Virus record (IMG/VR): IMGVR_UViG_3300027819_000007
Span: 83,787 to 147,786 of that record
Length of the DNA: 64,000 nt
Strand: one strand, 5' to 3'
DNA from: a virus
Taxonomy: Duplodnaviria; Heunggongvirae; Uroviricota; Caudoviricetes
The notes under the pieces were generated by a model. That model searched no databases, was not told the origin of the DNA, and was given only the letters and a program-made list of their open reading frames with translations. Positions within the stretch are counted from its first letter, which is position 1, and each line of letters starts with the position of its first letter. Shown here one piece after another: positions 3,409 to 37,737 of this stretch. The position numbers were made by a program, and so were the translations under genes.

Positions 3409-4860
3409 TCAACCCGTGACGATCAAATTATCTAAAAGGCTAAAAGCAGCAGCATGCCGCAGAGCAATATCGCAGGACAAAATTCCACGAACCCAAGTTT
3501 GGTCATTGGTAAAGGAGGTATCACCCAAAGTGGTAGCTGCAAACTCAATGGCTCCAAACATACCAATGAGCATATCGCTCCACATTCCACCCAGGATGTA
3601 GGTAAGAGTTGAAGAAGAACCCTTGGAACGAACCTGAGAAACCTGAGTGGACTTGGTCACCTTCTGTCCAGCAATGGTGGCTTCCACCTTGTCACCGGCT
3701 TCCCGGATCAGGTTGAACAGGAACGGTCCCATCTTATCGCCCTGTGCCACAGCATCGGTCCTAAGCTGGTAGGTACGATACAAGGTCTTGGGTCGCATGA
3801 TGAACCCCTCGAACTCGGCATTGGCCTCTTCCACCGAAGCGATCATACGGTAGAAGTCATTGGCTACCAGCTGGTCTCCGTCAACTCCAGTGGAGCTAGA
3901 AACCACCGTGTTAATACCCAGAGTGTTAAGAACACCACGAGGACGGGTATCCCCACCATTACCTTCCAGTCCGGCCAGGTCCAGTCCCAGAGCCAGGGAC
4001 TTGGTCATGTCGTCCCGCAGCAGGGCTTCTGCAGCAGGGGAGGCAAAACGAATGAGTTCGTTGGGAGCCTTGATGAGAACTGCCAGCTTCTTGGCCTGGA
4101 GGGTGACTTCACCCGTTCCCACCAACGATTCGGTAATAGCCGCATTCTCACCAACCCAATAGGTGTTAGAAGGAGTGGTCTGGCGAGGATACTTTAGTCG
4201 TCCCTGGGGAGGAAGGGGAACCGTCTTGGCTCCTGCATTGACCAAAGCTTCCTTGTTACGGAGCAGCTCGATCAATTCACCCATCTCTGGGGGTGCCACC
4301 AAGGCTCCACCCGTAATTTCGTTAATCCAGCTCAAAGCCTTGCTGCCGTATCCCATGCTCTGAAGCTGCTTGGTACGGATCCAATTCATTTCACCAGGAT
4401 CAACTCCTTCCATACCGGCCCGAACTGCCTGCCGCATTTCCGAACGGAAGTCACGGGGAACAATTCGATCCTGCATATAGGAAGTGCTCAAGGGAGCCAT
4501 GAAGCGATGGATACCTTCATGTCCGGTTCCACCATAGGTGTAACCAGCATCGCCCAACGACTTACAATAAACTCCGTGGAGTCTATTGTGGAAGTCAATT
4601 TCCATCTTGGCTTCGTCACGGGGAACAGCTCCGGTAAGGACACCCATCATTTTCATGAATGAGTAACCACGGGAACCCATGCTGTCTTCACCGTTGCGAA
4701 CATTGGGAACTCCCCACTGCTGTTGGTTAGGGTCGGGATGACCCGCCATACGGGTTTTCTTGAGAGTATCAACCAAGTCGTCAATACTCTTGGTCATAAC
4801 AGCAAGCCCTTCCGCATTCTTTTGCGTCTGGGCTGCCAGGTCGGACAATTCAATGCCCAT
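3409..4860 (-). CDS. major capsid protein, HK97 fold
   Basis: 483 aa. Has an N-terminal coiled-coil delta-like segment and HK97-family capsid signatures (Gly-rich core, 'EEANAEFEGFIMRP..'). Lies directly after the scaffold and protease genes, as in HK97-type head modules. Confidence 0.8.
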   Translation of the reverse strand: MGIELSDLAAQTQKNAEGLAVMTKSIDDLVDTLKKTRMAGHPDPNQQQWGVPNVRNGEDSMGSRGYSFMKMMGVLTGAVPRDEAKMEIDFHNRLHGVYCKSLGDAGYTYGGTGHEGIHRFMAPLSTSYMQDRIVPRDFRSEMRQAVRAGMEGVDPGEMNWIRTKQLQSMGYGSKALSWINEITGGALVAPPEMGELIELLRNKEALVNAGAKTVPLPPQGRLKYPRQTTPSNTYWVGENAAITESLVGTGEVTLQAKKLAVLIKAPNELIRFASPAAEALLRDDMTKSLALGLDLAGLEGNGGDTRPRGVLNTLGINTVVSSSTGVDGDQLVANDFYRMIASVEEANAEFEGFIMRPKTLYRTYQLRTDAVAQGDKMGPFLFNLIREAGDKVEATIAGQKVTKSTQVSQVRSKGSSSTLTYILGGMWSDMLIGMFGAIEFAATTLGDTSFTNDQTWVRGILSCDIALRHAAAFSLLDNLIVTG

Positions 4861-22683: not shown

Positions 22684-23040
22684 TTATCCCGTTTCCTTCC
22701 TCAACAGATAAGCAACATGTCGATGCATACTTCTTACACGATAAGGAGGGAACTGGTTGGTGAATCTTCTATAAGAAAACTCAGTCCACTTCATAGGGAG
22801 GAAAGAGTTAGGATTAATCCCTCCCAAGGTAGCCAATACCTCTACCAAAGAAGTAGTGTCAGATGTTTCCATGAGGAGGTCAGCCAGGGCATGGACCGCT
22901 ACCATGTCCTTCTCACTTTGAATAGCCTGAAGTAAGGCTCGAACATTTTGAGACATCATTTGGTTTTGTCCTTGGTAAAGTCTAGAGGAGGAAGGTTCAC
23001 TAAACCTCTTCCATAGTTCACACATTGTTGAGACAACCAC
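22684..23040 (-). CDS. hypothetical protein
   Basis: 118 aa ORF; its 3' end overlaps the start of the next ORF. Confidence 0.3.
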   Translation of the reverse strand: MVVSTMCELWKRFSEPSSSRLYQGQNQMMSQNVRALLQAIQSEKDMVAVHALADLLMETSDTTSLVEVLATLGGINPNSFLPMKWTEFSYRRFTNQFPPYRVRSMHRHVAYLLRKETG

Positions 23041-23711
23041 TTCTCTGCTTCAAGGAGAGTGAAAAATACAGGAGATCGTCCTACCCCTTTGGCATACCTT
23101 GATTTCTCGATTTGAACAATCTCTGCCGGAATGTTGTACGATGAGTTAGGTATCTCCTTCTTTCGAATAGGTCGAAATGCTCTCCAATAGTAAATCCGTT
23201 CTTCGGTTCCTCTTTTCGGTCCTTCAAAATGGTGTTGTATTGCCACAAGAGGATTCTTATCAATCAATCGAACTTCTGTAATGGGATGTAAAGAGAACAA
23301 CTCCTTTGCATGGTTAAGAAATTCCTCGCAAGGAAGGTGGATCCTAAAAGTAAATCCTCTCCTCCATTGCCAGGACCATTGAGAAATAGTCTCTGGGAAA
23401 TGTTCCGGAAGTATCCACCAGCTAAACCCCAAACCAGATAATTGGATTTGCCTCATTTTCAACGGTTTGTTTTCGTGCATATCCAGAACACACTTGCCAT
23501 TGTGATGCTGCCGTCCACTTCCTTCCTTAACGCACCTTCCACATAGGCACTGAGAACGAAGTTTGTCTACCTGCAACTCCACTCGAATGAATTCAGCACG
23601 GTCTTGCTGTCCATTCTCTTCCAGCCAGTCTGAATAGACGAGACGAACATCATCATCATAAGGATCTTCCAGAATGGCTCGGAGGAGGGATTCTCCGGTG
23701 GTGGTAGTCAT
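22956..23711 (-). CDS. protein with N-terminal 'RLVYSDWLEE' domain, family C'
   Basis: 251 aa. N-terminus 'LLRAILEDPYDDDVRLVYSDWLEENGQQDRAEFIRVELQV', followed by a Cys-rich middle region. Confidence 0.5.
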   Translation of the reverse strand: MTTTTGESLLRAILEDPYDDDVRLVYSDWLEENGQQDRAEFIRVELQVDKLRSQCLCGRCVKEGSGRQHHNGKCVLDMHENKPLKMRQIQLSGLGFSWWILPEHFPETISQWSWQWRRGFTFRIHLPCEEFLNHAKELFSLHPITEVRLIDKNPLVAIQHHFEGPKRGTEERIYYWRAFRPIRKKEIPNSSYNIPAEIVQIEKSRYAKGVGRSPVFFTLLEAEKWLSQQCVNYGRGLVNLPPLDFTKDKTK

Positions 23712-26621: not shown

Positions 26622-26909
26622 TCATTCCCAAACTAGCTCTCGCCAGTTGAAGGGAATGATTCCATCTTCCAATGCCTTGGCTATCATACCTCGGTGTCGG
26701 AAATCAGCACGGAGAACATGACAGCGACGGCAAAGGACTCGTAAATTGGTGTGATGGTTCGTTCCTAACTTCCCTGAACGAATGTGGTCCACATGACATT
26801 CATTCAGAGCCACTTCCTTGTTACAGTGGAAGCACCTTCCGTTGTCTCTTTTCCAGACTGTTTCCCTGGTCTTGTCCCACACTTCCCTCGGTTGGCGTTT
26901 CTTGGGCAT
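26622..26909 (-). CDS. HNH endonuclease
   Basis: 95 aa. 'CFHCNKEV..CHVDHIRSGKLGTNHHTNLRVLCRRCH' is a canonical HNH/zinc motif. Confidence 0.75.
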   Translation of the reverse strand: MPKKRQPREVWDKTRETVWKRDNGRCFHCNKEVALNECHVDHIRSGKLGTNHHTNLRVLCRRCHVLRADFRHRGMIAKALEDGIIPFNWRELVWE

Positions 26910-27549
26910 CTTCCAACTCCTGGTAAGAAATCACATCGAATCTCCCACATCCCACTCGAATACCATCTCCCAAACCACCAAGGGTTCCGGAATCTCGGAG
27001 AATGGCTTTCATTTGTTCACGGGAGATGATGGTTTTGTCCCAACGCAAGGTAAATCGTGCTTTCCAACCAGATCTGGTTGACAGACGGTATCGAATGTTC
27101 CTCCCTTTTGTAGATGGATTCCGAACTGATGTTATGTAAACGAACACCAGGATGGAAGAGTCGGTAGGAGAAAGAACATACTGTTGTGTTAATTTTTCAG
27201 GCATCTTCCGATTGAGAAGAACCACATCTTCTTCTACTTGGAGCGTTGACACCAGTTGGTTTTGAAGAGATCCGCGTCCTTTCTTGGTATGCACGGCTCC
27301 ATTTTTCAAACACCCAAAGACATAGTTTCCTGGTATGTACAGATTTCCGTCCTCTGTAACCATACAGGTTTTCTTCCACTCCTCCGGGTTGTTTCCTGCG
27401 ACTCCTGACCGTTCTTCTTTTTCTAATGGGATGGCATCAGGACCAAAGCGATGCTGAACCAATGCTCTACTCCCCTGAACCAACACTCTTGCTCTTACGA
27501 TGTTTGACATGGACCTTGCCCTTTCGTGGTTCTTCGTTCCATCGAGCAC
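26821..27549 (-). CDS. hypothetical protein
   Basis: 242 aa ORF; its 3' end overlaps the HNH gene start by ~88 nt in another frame. Confidence 0.4.
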   Translation of the reverse strand: MLDGTKNHERARSMSNIVRARVLVQGSRALVQHRFGPDAIPLEKEERSGVAGNNPEEWKKTCMVTEDGNLYIPGNYVFGCLKNGAVHTKKGRGSLQNQLVSTLQVEEDVVLLNRKMPEKLTQQYVLSPTDSSILVFVYITSVRNPSTKGRNIRYRLSTRSGWKARFTLRWDKTIISREQMKAILRDSGTLGGLGDGIRVGCGRFDVISYQELEDAQETPTEGSVGQDQGNSLEKRQRKVLPL

Positions 27550-28772: not shown

Positions 28773-29582
28773 CTACTCCATCTTTGGTTCTGCTCCTTGG
28801 AAGATCACTTCAGGACGATTGACTACCTTTCCAAATGGTGGCATCTCCACGATCTTCACATCACTCCGTTCGATCATCAAATCTGGATTGGTTCTTGCTT
28901 CGTGTTTAGTAGGCAAACTTTCCAACTCTTCACTAGTGAACTTTCTGGTGGTAACTTGCTTTTGTACAAAAGTTCCACGCTTGAAGAATGGTAAATAGTC
29001 ATTCCAATTGATACCACGACCAAATAACATCTCCTGCATTTCGGGACCATTCTTGTTGTAGAGTTCCTTGTGACTAAAAACGGATTGGGCTGCCATAGAA
29101 ATGGAGTTTCGAGTAGCATCCTGCTCCCGCCACAAGAATACGTTAACCCCTTCCACTATGTTGGGAACATTCCATACTCGACAATCGAAGTGAGCAATGG
29201 GTAAATTCATCAATGGAAATCTGGAGGGGACATGTTTGTTGAACCATCCCGTACACAAAGAAGACAACACTGATACCATCTTCTGAATTTTGCCATCGAA
29301 GAAGATTTGACTTTTGAAGTCGGTACTGTGCCAAGCCAAAGTGATTTCATCCGACTGCACGTATCCCATACAAGCATTGGTTTCTTTGACAAGGTAAATC
29401 GTGGTGTCAATCATAAGGGCAGAAAGTCGCTCATCGTAAGGACGTTCCATCCCCCTGGTCCAGTTGTGGAAGTTCTTTCCATCAAGACGAGCAAAAGCAG
29501 GGAGGAGAGGAATAAGTTTTCTTCTTGCTTCCATCCCTTCATAAAGCTTCATACGTTCACCAAAATCAGTTGTATCTGCCAT
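28773..29582 (-). CDS. Thg1-like protein (tRNA-His guanylyltransferase family, 3'-5' nucleotidyltransferase)
   Basis: 269 aa. 'FARLDGKNFHNWTRGMERPYDERLSALM' matches the Thg1/TLP N-terminal signature ('R.DG..FH.F......KP.D'). Lies immediately upstream of a four-tRNA cluster. Confidence 0.65.
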   Translation of the reverse strand: MADTTDFGERMKLYEGMEARRKLIPLLPAFARLDGKNFHNWTRGMERPYDERLSALMIDTTIYLVKETNACMGYVQSDEITLAWHSTDFKSQIFFDGKIQKMVSVLSSLCTGWFNKHVPSRFPLMNLPIAHFDCRVWNVPNIVEGVNVFLWREQDATRNSISMAAQSVFSHKELYNKNGPEMQEMLFGRGINWNDYLPFFKRGTFVQKQVTTRKFTSEELESLPTKHEARTNPDLMIERSDVKIVEMPPFGKVVNRPEVIFQGAEPKME

Positions 29583-29608
29583 GTTGTTCTCCTAAAGGTT
29601 AGTACCAG

Positions 29609-29678
29609 TTGCAGACCCCGGAGTTGAACCGGGAAAGAGAAACTTATGAGGCTTCTCCAGGAACCGTCCAAGTCTGCG
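29609..29678 (-). tRNA. atypical tRNA-like gene, anticodon CAU (Met/Ile2-type) with C1:A72 mismatch and shortened D-arm
   Basis: Manual fold gives acceptor 5' cgcagac / 3' gtctgca, anticodon stem gaagc/gtttc, loop cucauaa, variable ucuuu, and T-arm cccgg-uucaacu-ccggg. The D-region is only 16 nt. Confidence 0.4.
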
Positions 29679-29683
29679 ATCAA

Positions 29684-29768
29684 TGACCAGAGTGGGACTC
29701 GAACCCACAAGCCCATAAAGAGCATCAGATCTTAAATCTGATGTGTTTCCCAATTTCACCATCTGGTC
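29684..29768 (-). tRNA. tRNA-Leu (anticodon UAA), type II with long variable arm
   Basis: Acceptor gaccaga/ucugguc, 3-bp D stem, anticodon loop uuuaaga, 16-nt variable arm, T-arm guggg-uucgagu-cccac. Confidence 0.7.
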
Positions 29769-29794: not shown

Positions 29795-29866
29795 TGGGTT
29801 CAGTTGGAATTGAACCAACAACCGAAGGATTATGAGTCCTTTGCTCTACCATTGAGCTATGAACCC
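29795..29866 (-). tRNA. tRNA-Met/Ile2 (anticodon CAU), canonical
   Basis: Acceptor ggguuca/ugaaccc, D-arm gcuc-aauggua-gagc, anticodon arm aagga-cucauaa-uccuu, T-arm guugg-uucaauu-ccaac. Confidence 0.75.
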
Positions 29867-29869
29867 AAA

Positions 29870-29940
29870 GGCAACCCGCAGGATTCGAACCTACATCTTC
29901 CTCCGGAAAGGAGGTTGTCCTACCGTTAGACGAGGGTTAC
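29870..29940 (-). tRNA. tRNA-Glu-like (anticodon UUC)
   Basis: Acceptor guaaccc/ggguugc (one G-U), D-arm gucu-aacggua-ggac, anticodon loop cuuuccg, T-arm guagg-uucgaau-ccugc. The A27:A43 mismatch and C37 are slightly atypical. Confidence 0.55.
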
Positions 29941-30659: not shown

Positions 30660-30950
30660 TCAAAGACCCACCGAAGTTGCAATCTCCTCTACGATGGGTT
30701 TTAACTCTTCGTGGTCGTCGATGACAAAGTATGTAGACCCCTCATTGAAGATGACGTGGATCATAGTCACATCATTCTCTTCCGACCATCCCGCGTCCCA
30801 GGCATCACGAGCAGCCATGTTTTTGTAGATCATCGTCTCTGACACTAGCTCCGTATAAACAGCTTGTGGCCAGAATTTCTCAACCTCACTCATGATTGTT
30901 GGTATACTCAACGCTACCGGAATCTCTAGTTGACATCCATGAAGGTCCAT
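30660..30950 (-). CDS. hypothetical protein
   Basis: 96 aa ORF. Confidence 0.4.
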   Translation of the reverse strand: MDLHGCQLEIPVALSIPTIMSEVEKFWPQAVYTELVSETMIYKNMAARDAWDAGWSEENDVTMIHVIFNEGSTYFVIDDHEELKPIVEEIATSVGL

Positions 30951-30974: not shown

Positions 30975-31562
30975 TCACTTCTCGTAAGAGCGAGAGGATG
31001 GATTTGGACCATCATTCAGTGTCACCACTGGTTTTGCTATTAAACTACTCTCGCAGATAGGCACTACAGGATTTGAACCTGTGACCATTGATATGTAAGA
31101 CCAATGCTCTACCCACTGAGCTAAGTGCCTATTGAGAACCAGAAGACTTCCCCAACAGAGGTCCATTACGTTCTGTCGTAATCTCTTCAAATGGATTGAA
31201 GCTTGACACGAATTCATTCGTAAAACCCTACCGATACTCCAGATCGCAACCCAAAGTAACCTTGTGGTAGGAATACCAATGAACCGTCCATTCCAGTTAT
31301 CATTCTTAGTATTACGTGAATCCAAAGGAATGGCTAACCTCACCAAATGAGCTTCACATTCTGTAATGGCATTGTCAAGGGATAAGGCTAACCCATCAAA
31401 GCGGTCTTCATATTTTGGAGGAAATATCTTCCACTTCCAGCCCCCACGAGGACTGTCACACTCTTCGTCAAAGTAGACTTCCGCATAGTAAGGACGTCTC
31501 ACAATGCCCCGAACCATGTTGCCTAGTACCCACTCGTCCGGTTCATGTTGTTGCCAGATCAC
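30975..31562 (-). CDS. hypothetical protein; C-terminal part overlaps tRNA-Val
   Basis: 195 aa ORF. Its start overlaps the stop of the SPFH gene (ATGA), implying coupling. The last ~50 codons run through the tRNA-Val sequence. Confidence 0.4.
   Translation of the reverse strand: MIWQQHEPDEWVLGNMVRGIVRRPYYAEVYFDEECDSPRGGWKWKIFPPKYEDRFDGLALSLDNAITECEAHLVRLAIPLDSRNTKNDNWNGRFIGIPTTRLLWVAIWSIGRVLRMNSCQASIHLKRLRQNVMDLCWGSLLVLNRHLAQWVEHWSYISMVTGSNPVVPICESSLIAKPVVTLNDGPNPSSRSYEK
31058..31130 (-). tRNA. tRNA-Val (anticodon UAC)
   Basis: Acceptor aggcacu/agugccu, D-arm gcuc-agugggua-gagc, anticodon arm uuggu-cuuacau-aucaa, T-arm acagg-uucaaau-ccugu. Lies inside the 3' part of ORF 30975..31562. Confidence 0.75.
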
Positions 31563-33127: not shown

Positions 33128-33952
33128 TCAAATTCCTGAAATTCGTTTACGTTCTTCTACCAAGTTCCATGGATTGGGAGAAGGTACTTCCCACTTTGGT
33201 TCTTCCGGAGCACTTGAGATATGAGTAATCCTCCACATCCCTTCATTTCCGAGGGGAGAAAGTTCCTGGGGAGTATCCCATACTCGATGGTCTACCATGT
33301 GACAAACAGCAATTTCCTGATCGACTTCTAGTTTGTATCCTAACATTTTTGCCTGAGCCATCTTGCTGGTTACGGGCCAGCAATGACAATGATCTGCTCT
33401 TTCATCCACTCCATTGATAATATCGAAAAAGTCTCTGGTGATACTTACGTAAAAGGTCTCCCACTCTCTTGGAACCCAAGGCCACTTGGGAATCAAGGGA
33501 GGGGGGATTTTCCAGGTAGAGAAGTCATCAACCAGAGTTGGTTTAGGTGTTTCGTAAACAATGGCTGATCCGGAGATAAGAGTCTTGTCATCAAACTGTT
33601 TATGAAGATGGTCCCATGCCCTGATCCAGTAGGGAGGCAGCCAGGTATAATCACTGACAAAGACAATCCTTTCTCCTCTGCAATGGAGGAGAGCACTGTT
33701 CCAGGCGTTGCACAATCCGCCTTTCACATTGGAGTAAAACTTGTTTTTACTTTTGCGATAACAAGTAAGTGGTAATCCCATTGAGAGGATTCTTTTCTCA
33801 ACAACTCCTCGTTCAACTCTACCAGGATAATCATCGATGACAATGAATTCCCACTCGATTGTTTGATCGGTTCCTTGCAAAGTTTCTTGCAAGGAATGAC
33901 AAAGAATGTCAAATCCTCCAGGTCGGTAGCTGCACAGCACCAAAGAAATCAT
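33128..33952 (-). CDS. putative glycosyltransferase (GT-A fold)
   Basis: 274 aa. N-terminal 'ISLVLCSYRPGG' and a 'FIVIDDYPG' DxD-like region, as in family-2 glycosyltransferases. Confidence 0.45.
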   Translation of the reverse strand: MISLVLCSYRPGGFDILCHSLQETLQGTDQTIEWEFIVIDDYPGRVERGVVEKRILSMGLPLTCYRKSKNKFYSNVKGGLCNAWNSALLHCRGERIVFVSDYTWLPPYWIRAWDHLHKQFDDKTLISGSAIVYETPKPTLVDDFSTWKIPPPLIPKWPWVPREWETFYVSITRDFFDIINGVDERADHCHCWPVTSKMAQAKMLGYKLEVDQEIAVCHMVDHRVWDTPQELSPLGNEGMWRITHISSAPEEPKWEVPSPNPWNLVEERKRISGI

Positions 33953-34494
33953 GACTTGTTTTCTCTCAATTTCTTCAAAGCTCTGGACAGAGCCTTTTCT
34001 GCTTCCACTCGATTGATGTAAGAACGAGCATAGTTACTATGGGACAGATTGTCGTTCCATTTCCCATTGTTCCGACCGTCCACAATATATCCATCAAGGT
34101 ACTGAAATAGACTCAATGCAATACACCATTCTCCGTGAACATGGTAATCTTTTCTGGTTGTCAATCCTATCCTAACGACGGGGAGTTTTTTGGAATCGGG
34201 GAAAATCCAAAAACATCGTTCCATACCAGCACAAAACCAAGTAGCTTCATCTCCAGAACCCAATCCCAACGCACATGGGGGGCCAGGCATGACTTTGAGG
34301 TTAGCGAGATAGCGTTGTCCTTCTGCTTCATCTTGAAGATACTTCTCCTCCAGCCAATCTGAGTATACTAAGCGAGATTCCCAATCGTCAGGATGTTGGT
34401 CAAAATGTTGTTCCCATTCCCAAGCATACATGGTAGTGAAATCTCCTCCCGTGGTCCATTTCCAGGTGTCCACTACGAAGGTGATGAAACTCAT
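33949..34494 (-). CDS. protein with 'RLVYSDWLEE' repeat-companion-like motif
   Basis: 181 aa containing 'ESRLVYSDWLEEKYLQDEAEGQRYLANLK'. Confidence 0.45.
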   Translation of the reverse strand: MSFITFVVDTWKWTTGGDFTTMYAWEWEQHFDQHPDDWESRLVYSDWLEEKYLQDEAEGQRYLANLKVMPGPPCALGLGSGDEATWFCAGMERCFWIFPDSKKLPVVRIGLTTRKDYHVHGEWCIALSLFQYLDGYIVDGRNNGKWNDNLSHSNYARSYINRVEAEKALSRALKKLRENKS

Positions 34495-37092: not shown

Positions 37093-37737
37093 TTATTCCT
37101 CACATGGGATAATTTTGTATTTCTTCCCGCTAATCGTAATTTGAGCATGATGCTTAGGGTGACAGGTCAACGCCCGGATAACTATTTTGGATGAATCTGG
37201 GATAGATATTTCCTCACAAAGAGGAGATTTTTTGTAGTATCTTCCTTCCCCTTTATTTTGAGGAGTAGAAGGAATCTCCTCCCCGTTCAAAATCCTTGGA
37301 ACCCATTTGATGAAGAGTTCCTTGAGCAGTTGATGAGAAATTTTTACCAAATCTCCCGATGTGTGATGATTCTCTATAGGGAATTTCTTGACCTCAATGA
37401 TAGGCCCGGTATCATACTCCGGAGCCATGTAGTGGAGGGTAGCTCCAAACTCCTTCTCTCCGTTGATGATAGCATGGTAAGCAAGGTTCCTTCCTTTATA
37501 CTCTGGGAGGGGGGCAGGATGGAAGTTGAGCCAACGGTAAGGAATAGTAAACTCACTAGAAGGAATCTTGTGAGTGGCCAGAAAATTCACTCCTAAGTCA
37601 TAGGGGGGAATCTTGGACCAGTCCTTGATGTGGTAATCATTACACCCTTCAAAGACCACTTCTCCACCAATCCAACGTAGATGATGATACATCTCCCATC
37701 CAAGATCGGTATTGGCAAGGTAAAGAACTCTGGTCAT
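37093..37737 (-). CDS. sugar N-formyltransferase (formyl_transf_N family)
   Basis: 214 aa. 'LNFHPAPLPEYKGRN...HYMAPEYDTGPII' matches the formyltransferase catalytic motif (N.H.S.LP...G, His, Asp). Confidence 0.65.
   Translation of the reverse strand: MTRVLYLANTDLGWEMYHHLRWIGGEVVFEGCNDYHIKDWSKIPPYDLGVNFLATHKIPSSEFTIPYRWLNFHPAPLPEYKGRNLAYHAIINGEKEFGATLHYMAPEYDTGPIIEVKKFPIENHHTSGDLVKISHQLLKELFIKWVPRILNGEEIPSTPQNKGEGRYYKKSPLCEEISIPDSSKIVIRALTCHPKHHAQITISGKKYKIIPCEE

Follow-up and report, generated by a model that had tools for sequence, protein, structure and literature searches.

A phage tRNA(CAU) gene with an initiator-type acceptor end and a reduced cloverleaf, upstream of a Thg1-like protein gene

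In bacteria, binding to EF-Tu is classically prevented by an unpaired 1:72 position. In amoebozoan mitochondria with 5' editing, mismatches are found in several tRNAs, at positions 1-3, and in mitochondrial tRNAs such as mammalian mt-tRNASer(UCN) a longer anticodon stem is traded for a shorter D region and variable loop. The major determinant for the methionyl-tRNA formyltransferase Fmt is the 1:72 mismatch combined with pairs 2:71 and 3:70 (Shetty et al., PMC5389676). Of the three anticodon-stem G:C pairs (29:41, 30:40 and 31:39, written below in that order), G30 is the most critical residue; growth of Escherichia coli is sustained by an au/gu/au mutant, G30 alone can suffice in a particular context, and au/GC/gu initiators are found in nature (PMC5389676). 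Here, we describe an aberrant tRNA gene with a CAU anticodon at 29609-29678 on the minus strand of 64,000 nt of tailed-virus DNA (Caudoviricetes; positions 83,787 to 147,786 of IMG/VR record IMGVR_UViG_3300027819_000007), a stretch that we call the window. We moderately favour the reading that this gene, hereafter the candidate, encodes a structurally reduced initiator-type tRNA, a role suggested by its sequence and by compact tRNAs found elsewhere.

The candidate is 70 nt long, from C1 (29678) to the discriminator base A73 (29609), and does not encode CCA; its delineation draws on ARAGORN, on a predicted fold and on a covariance model, R1, described below. From 5' to 3' it reads CGCAGAC UU GGA CGGU UCC U GGAGAAGC CUCAUAA GUUUCUCU UU CCCGG UUCAACU CCGGG GUCUGCA A. 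The acceptor 5' strand CGCAGAC (29672-29678) faces GUCUGCA (29616-29610), which with A73 makes up the 3' strand (29609-29616). Pairs 2-7 are Watson-Crick, six in all, and the only mismatch is at 1:72, where C1 stands opposite A72 (29610). The T arm at 29617-29633 (minus strand, like all arms of the gene), CCCGG-UUCAACU-CCGGG, is canonical, with a 5-bp stem made up entirely of G:C pairs. In the anticodon arm (29636-29658; GGAGAAGC/GUUUCUCU, up to 8 bp), the loop is CUCAUAA and the anticodon CAU lies at 29646-29648.

The minimum-free-energy fold (-27.9 kcal/mol, z = -2.85, with 3/200 shuffles equally good) contains this T arm, an anticodon stem of eight contiguous pairs, a 2-nt variable region and, at 29660-29669, a miniature D hairpin, GGA-CGGU-UCC, whose 3-bp stem carries a 4-nt loop. 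In the ARAGORN drawing, the anticodon stem is 6 bp long and the D hairpin takes another register; either of the two folds may be the real one. The candidate retains U8, the GG of the D loop, U33 and A37. These observations bear out the preliminary description, which had reported a 70-nt gene with a CAU loop and a canonical T arm, a C1:A72 mismatch, a 16-nt D region (the count obtained when the anticodon stem is taken as 5 bp) and a possible 8-bp anticodon stem.

ARAGORN reported the candidate as a tRNA-Met(cat) at 29608-29678 on the minus strand, with C1 and A72 drawn unpaired. Across 2.56 Mb of dinucleotide-preserving shuffles of the window, the program made a single false call. Given this low rate, a call that falls within a slot of about 100 nt, on the strand of a tRNA array, is not due to chance. 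The candidate is a real tRNA gene, yet a truly aberrant one.

Its acceptor end (C1·A72, G2:C71, C3:G70 and A73) is that of E. coli tRNAfMet, judged against a sequence that we take to be the E. coli one (A73 included) and that also served as our database query. The two tRNAs (the E. coli one being of the metZ/metY type) further share the CUCAUAA loop, U8, G30 and a T arm of the GG-UUCAAnU-CC type. They differ in length (70 nt in the candidate versus 76-77 before CCA, which the candidate lacks), in the D arm (a 3-bp stem with a 4-nt loop versus 4 bp with 8-9 nt), in the anticodon stem of up to 8 bp, in the variable region (2 nt versus 5) and at 4:69 (A4:U69 versus G4:C69). Where E. coli tRNAfMet has three G:C pairs, the candidate has A:U, G·U and C:G (au/gu/cg), so that G30 is retained; in the absence of the three pairs, the candidate is not a canonical tRNAfMet. 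The preliminary description had suggested a bacterial-initiator-like feature, and this reading is supported by the acceptor end, by G30 and by the compact analogues described below.

Initiator-type tRNAs are common in phages. The E. coli tRNAfMet query had a match covering at least 80% in 306 phage records, among which positions 1:72 and 29:41 vary: the initiator-type tRNA of Mycobacterium phage Burrough has A1·C72, that of Prevotella phage Lak-B2 has U1·U72, that of Cronobacter phage GAP32 has U1:A72 with au/GC/GC, and the annotated tRNA-fMet of Caulobacter phage CcrBL9 has U1·U72 with ua/GC/GC. Like the candidate, such tRNAs (in CcrBL9, mycobacteriophages of the Bxz1 type, Prevotella Lak phages and GAP32) have a CAU anticodon and lie in tRNA arrays of large phages; their 1:72 position is weak or mismatched (A·C, U·U or U:A) and the first anticodon-stem G:C pair is often replaced. 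Unlike the candidate, the four that we examined fully are all full-sized, with a normal D arm of the form GAGC...GCUC and at least G30:C40 and G31:C39. A phage-borne initiator is therefore of a known kind, and what is new here is the compaction.

Compact tRNAs of this type were found elsewhere with an architecture pattern whose features were taken from the candidate: a CAU tRNA with a CGC...GCAA end in which U8 and C32 are separated by only 17-21 nt. The pattern matched more than 119 contigs in JGI metagenomes (loci L100-L218). About 60% of these matches proved to be fusions of an ordinary tRNAfMet 3' half with unrelated 5' sequence, and were discarded as noise; the remainder are complete compact tRNAs. 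In the fusions, which lie on metagenome and viral contigs (many of L101-L218, and L284-L296), the tRNAfMet 3' half is exact from the anticodon loop to CCA, and they resemble the attachment-site repeats expected of elements that use initiator tRNA genes as integration sites. We ruled out that the candidate is itself an attP-like tRNA fragment, as its 5' half pairs fully with its 3' half.

The largest compact group, of 69-70 nt, has the form CGCGGGG UA GUGU ACGG(N) GCAC [GUGAGG CUCAUAA UCUCAC] AGG CUAGG UUCAACU CCUAG CCCCGCA A, and occurs in 64 species, one genome each, among GTDB representative genomes (L219-L282). About half of its members are deposited as Patescibacteria, also known as the Candidate Phyla Radiation (CPR), under the names Levyibacteriota, Microgenomates, Roizmanbacteria, Woesebacteria, Chisholmbacteria and Saccharimonadales; most others come from metagenome-assembled genomes deposited as uncultured Gammaproteobacteria or Pseudomonadales. 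The family combines a short D loop on a 4-bp D stem with a 6-bp anticodon stem that includes a covarying 26:44 pair, has au/GC/gu and encodes no CCA. Its cloverleaf covaries: 99.8% of cells are paired, nine pairs have changed on both sides, and none of 500 shuffles was as good. We found no paper on the initiator tRNA of Patescibacteria/CPR, nor on the compact 69-70-nt family. A canonical elongator tRNA-Met usually adjoins the family member; beside the compact initiators of L219-L282, this elongator has a G1·U72 wobble and A73 (e.g. GCCAGGG...CCCTGGT-A-C).

The closest architectural matches on phage contigs, L288 and L105, both have a mini D hairpin and a variable region of 2-3 nt. L288 lies beside capsid and scaffold genes; in its tRNA (CGCAGAG...), the D stem is 5 bp and its loop 3 nt, the anticodon stem is 7 bp and bulged, and the variable region reads UU. 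L105, with a D loop of 4 nt and a bulged 7-bp anticodon stem, was missed by both ARAGORN and the Rfam tRNA model RF00005, and has a neighbour that appears, from its translated open reading frame (ORF), to be lambda NinG-like. Two further loci on phage contigs, L283 and L141, are milder compact cases.

With L288, L105 and the 69-70-nt family, the candidate shares the CGC...GCAA end, an anticodon at position 29-32, a short D loop with GG, a lengthened anticodon stem (6-7 bp in theirs), a variable region of 2-4 nt, fewer than three G:C pairs and, often, a UUCAACU T loop. Sequence similarity to the candidate is limited to the parts common to initiators. Unlike the candidate, L288 and L105 encode CCA; in the family, the D stem has 4 bp and position 30:40 is G30:C40. 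In the D stem, bacterial initiators have a purine 11:pyrimidine 24 pair: the candidate would have G11:C24 in the minimum-free-energy register, the ARAGORN register being different, and the family has U11:A24. The candidate is not a member of the family by descent. Our conclusion is that the candidate shares the compact architecture, which is a working solution in nature; we do not conclude common descent.

To score the candidate, we built the covariance model R1 from the 69-70-nt genome family. The candidate was the best match in the window, at 48.3 bits (E = 1.4e-12), and the canonical CAU tRNA of the window reached 36.1 bits; generic tRNAs scored 25-38 bits and fragments matching the same pattern 14-40 bits, with L105 at 42 and L141 at 54.

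Several results weigh against an initiator role for the candidate. True members of the family score 94-99 bits with R1, so that the candidate, at about half of that, is not comparable; its score is also partly circular, because the family was fished out with a pattern taken from the candidate itself. RF00005 gave no match to the candidate at E <= 10, whether 601 nt or 86 nt were searched, which places it below the gathering threshold of 29 bits. The two tRNA predictors thus disagree, with ARAGORN, which the preliminary description had proposed as a check, finding the gene and Rfam not reporting it, and a stricter predictor would probably reject the candidate or label it a pseudogene. The combination au/gu/cg, which lacks three consecutive G:C pairs, is outside those tried in PMC5389676, and the combinations cg/gu/cg and cg/gu/GC failed in E. 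coli in the same study. Searches for relatives came back empty as well: there was no sequence similar to the candidate in INPHARED or IMG/VR; BLAST searches for near and distant relatives, with the array and with the candidate alone, returned no relative of the candidate from 50,697 phage records; a synteny search of IMG/VR with two small neighbouring proteins had no match; and a first, over-specific DNA pattern found nothing, and a relaxed pattern contributed just two chance matches from IMG/VR. All contigs that bear the candidate or an identical copy of the neighbouring protein are 100% identical to the window, and hence show no variation from which conservation or covariation of the candidate sequence could be judged. 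The tRNAs of the window are unlike those beside compact initiators and did not identify a host. Finally, non-decoding tRNA derivatives occur in the same genome, to judge from an anticodon-less element at 30989-31054 discussed below.

The lack of relatives and of a match to RF00005 at E <= 10, together with the short D arm and the missing G:C pairs, would also fit a decaying pseudogene of a former initiator or methionine tRNA that has partly lost its D arm. We consider this rather improbable. Every helix is intact, and U8, the D-loop GG, U33 and A37 are all retained; moreover, the 3-bp extension of the anticodon stem is coupled with a shortened variable region, as in L288 and L105, and random decay would not yield such pairing. 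Together with the long anticodon stem and the 2-nt variable region, the short D hairpin has the look of a compaction that evolved, not of decay. The trade-off is the one seen in mt-tRNASer(UCN), which belongs to a different genetic system; the candidate differs from it in that its T loop and anticodon loop are fully canonical.

Another unlikely explanation is that the candidate is a tRNA-like element that decodes nothing, and serves as a processing signal for RNase P and RNase Z or a 5' stabiliser, by which the mRNA of the downstream gene would be released and defined, or else as a decoy that draws off a host factor able to bind or cleave initiator tRNA. Its position would suit such a role, since it ends 26 nt upstream of the start of that gene with only a ribosome-binding site between them, and the general tRNA model rejects it. 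The anticodon-less element (30989-31054, minus strand) is likewise the last unit of its group, lying 3 nt after tRNA-Val(UAC) (31058-31130) and 38 nt upstream of an ORF (30660-30950). This element forms a full cloverleaf, with a 7-bp acceptor, a D arm and a T arm with a UCCAAAU loop, and its anticodon arm is a 5-bp stem under a 4-nt GUGA loop. It was missed by ARAGORN and by the Rfam run on the whole window, and reached 43 bits with RF00005 in a local search. A mechanical 195-aa ORF (30975-31562, minus strand) spans both tRNA-Val and the anticodon-less element, and is therefore probably not a gene. Against a non-decoding role for the candidate, a processing signal would need neither a perfect 7-nt CUCAUAA loop nor the full set of C1·A72, G2:C71, C3:G70 and A73, and the comparable tRNAs of L105 and L288 encode CCA, pointing to real tRNAs.

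The candidate is the fourth and last unit of an array on the coding strand, in the order Glu-CAU-Leu-candidate. The first unit, tRNA-Glu(UUC) (29870-29940), and tRNA-Leu(UAA) (29684-29768), both on the minus strand, were found by ARAGORN and RF00005; tRNA-Leu ends 5 nt upstream of the candidate, a spacing that is normal within the array. The preliminary description had noted a second, canonical CAU tRNA nearby, and this is located at 29795-29866 (minus strand), with 116 nt between the two genes; it scores 77.4 bits with RF00005, has G1:C72 and would be an elongator methionine tRNA or a tRNA-Ile2. A division of the two CAU tRNAs into an initiator-like one and an elongator or Ile2 one is a reasonable reading. 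The candidate could in turn be an elongator tRNA-Met, or a tRNA-Ile2 with its CAU modified to lysidine, in an unusual shape: it has the CAU anticodon, its anticodon stem is without the initiator G:C run, and phages often carry CAU tRNAs of the Ile2 type. We regard this as very improbable, given that an unpaired 1:72 is the EF-Tu anti-determinant, that the array already has a canonical CAU tRNA with G1:C72 and that the CGC...GCAA end is of the initiator type.

Downstream of the candidate, at 28773-29582 on the minus strand, lies the gene for a 269-aa protein that matches PF04446 (E = 7.8e-27). Sequence comparison indicates that it is a bacterial-type Thg1-like protein (TLP) with conserved catalytic carboxylates, nearer to bacterial TLPs than to eukaryotic Thg1: among solved structures, its best relative is 4KGK (E = 4.8e-39; deposited as 'Thg1-like uncharacterized protein'), compared with 3e-8 to 5e-6 for chains under the name tRNA(His) guanylyltransferase, and residues D34, D78 and E79 are invariant across 26 aligned relatives. 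The identical protein is found on contigs of up to 163,635 bp. The 26 nt that separate the 3' end of the tRNA from the start codon of the TLP gene (29583-29608, minus strand) contain an AGGAG ribosome-binding site at 29589-29593, and a terminator scan predicted no terminator-like site between the candidate and the TLP gene, which makes it likely that the two are co-transcribed.

This proximity underlies a proposal made in the preliminary description, namely that the mismatch is encoded for 5' editing by the Thg1-like enzyme. In such a scheme, as in amoebozoan mitochondria, C1 would be removed and a U added opposite A72. Template-dependent nucleotide addition to 5'-truncated tRNAs is described for TLPs (PMC4820378), and the TLP gene lies directly downstream, is probably co-transcribed and encodes a bacterial-type enzyme with its carboxylates conserved. 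Even so, we find the editing reading not supported and give it very little chance of being correct. In the amoebozoan case several tRNAs carry mismatches; here it is one tRNA and one mismatch. Position 1:72 is paired in the four normal tRNAs of the window (Glu, canonical CAU, Leu and Val), and C1·A72 is absent from other window tRNAs and from TLP-adjacent tRNAs elsewhere. The mismatch is exactly the initiator one and comes with G2:C71, C3:G70 and A73, so that it is fully explained as an initiator signature; editing to U1:A72 would erase the formylation determinant.

The association with a TLP does not recur either. At least 587 IMG/VR contigs encode a TLP, and at only about 13 of the loci L001-L099 did ARAGORN detect tRNAs at a distance of up to 2.5-3 kb, with no compact initiator-like tRNA among them other than at the locus of this phage itself (L019); an R1 search of 87 other viral TLP loci found none. 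Conversely, no TLP is present at any of the loci with other compact initiator-like tRNAs (L100-L298), including those of L288, L105 and the genome family. The adjacency of candidate and TLP is therefore not a conserved module. The closest TLPs, P0002 and P0003 (69% and 66% identity), have no tRNA upstream; on their contigs (L013-L018), the TLP gene is clustered with genes for an RNA ligase (PF09414), a nucleotidyltransferase, UDG, NAMPT and NUDIX proteins, which is a tRNA-repair and NAD-salvage neighbourhood rather than a tRNA array. We found no paper on phage TLPs.

An excess of G1·U72 in tRNAs near phage TLP genes (L002, L004, L027, L029, L079 and L088), judged without a phage-tRNA baseline, is unexplained and would sit well with an editing role; G1·U72 is absent from all tRNAs of the window. 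At one of these loci, on a 291-kb phage (L004/L005; tRNAs at 2601-2674 and 3795-3864), a tRNA-His with an encoded G-1 opposite C73 lies upstream of the TLP gene, and 9 nt downstream of it there is a 70-nt tRNA-Arg(UCG) whose D stem is 3 bp long and whose first acceptor pair is G1·U72. In the phage described here, the most probable function of the TLP is general repair of tRNA 5' ends, and it would share a transcript with the candidate by chance.

If the candidate is a reduced initiator-type tRNA, as we favour, it would be released by host RNase P and 3' processing enzymes and completed by the host CCA-adding enzyme. Charging by methionyl-tRNA synthetase (MetRS) would rely on the CAU anticodon and A73, and C1·A72 with G2:C71 and C3:G70 would direct its formylation by the host formyltransferase and keep EF-Tu off. 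The fMet-tRNA could then enter the ribosomal P site, with the retained G30 as a minimal anticodon-stem signal, and the phage would thereby supplement or replace the host pool of initiator tRNA during infection. A further and rather speculative idea, to which we assign a low probability, is that the candidate is an anti-defence device. The remodelled anticodon stem (G39 for C39, and no G:C run) and reduced D arm might let it escape host nucleases that destroy tRNAfMet, of the VapC-type PIN toxin kind, so that phage initiation would persist under host shutdown; the TLP, transcribed along with it, would protect phage tRNAs at their 5' ends, and compact initiators (the candidate, L288 and L105) would represent a recurrent phage strategy.

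Should the favoured reading be true, an initiator can work, or at least persist, on a D arm of 3 bp and 4 nt, an anticodon stem of 8 bp, a variable region of 2 nt and, from the three G:C pairs, nothing but G30. This would inform the question of what is truly required by the ribosome, IF3, MetRS and the formyltransferase. The candidate and L105 are also invisible to RF00005, and annotation based on standard covariance models misses such genes. As a result, current counts may underestimate phage tRNA repertoires and any link between them and attacks by the host on tRNAfMet.

The window as a whole is phage DNA, with a major head protein (3409-4860) and a portal protein (60852-63596), and almost all genes are on the minus strand. 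We considered a 214-aa formyltransferase (37093-37737, minus strand; PF00551, 1.6e-15) as a phage Fmt and rejected it: it has the catalytic domain only, without the C-terminal tRNA-binding domain, and scores 65.6 bits with the fmt model versus a cut-off of 201.5. Its neighbours, a DegT aminotransferase, an HAD phosphatase and an epimerase, make up a sugar-modification cluster, and its product is most likely a sugar N-formyltransferase rather than a Met-tRNA formyltransferase. Two proteins (22956-23711 and 33949-34494, both minus strand) contain the 'repeat-companion' domain TIGR02996, a model named rpt_mate_G_obs in NCBIfam, and we take that name to point to Gemmata obscuriglobus; this is a possible hint of a Planctomycetota-like host, and a homology search with the TIGR02996-domain protein returned only unnamed proteins and no pointer to a host. 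A 242-aa ORF (26821-27549, minus strand) matches the RAMP superfamily weakly and below threshold (PF03787, E = 0.0033, 18.4 bits versus a cut-off of 22.1), and adjoins an HNH endonuclease ORF (26622-26909).

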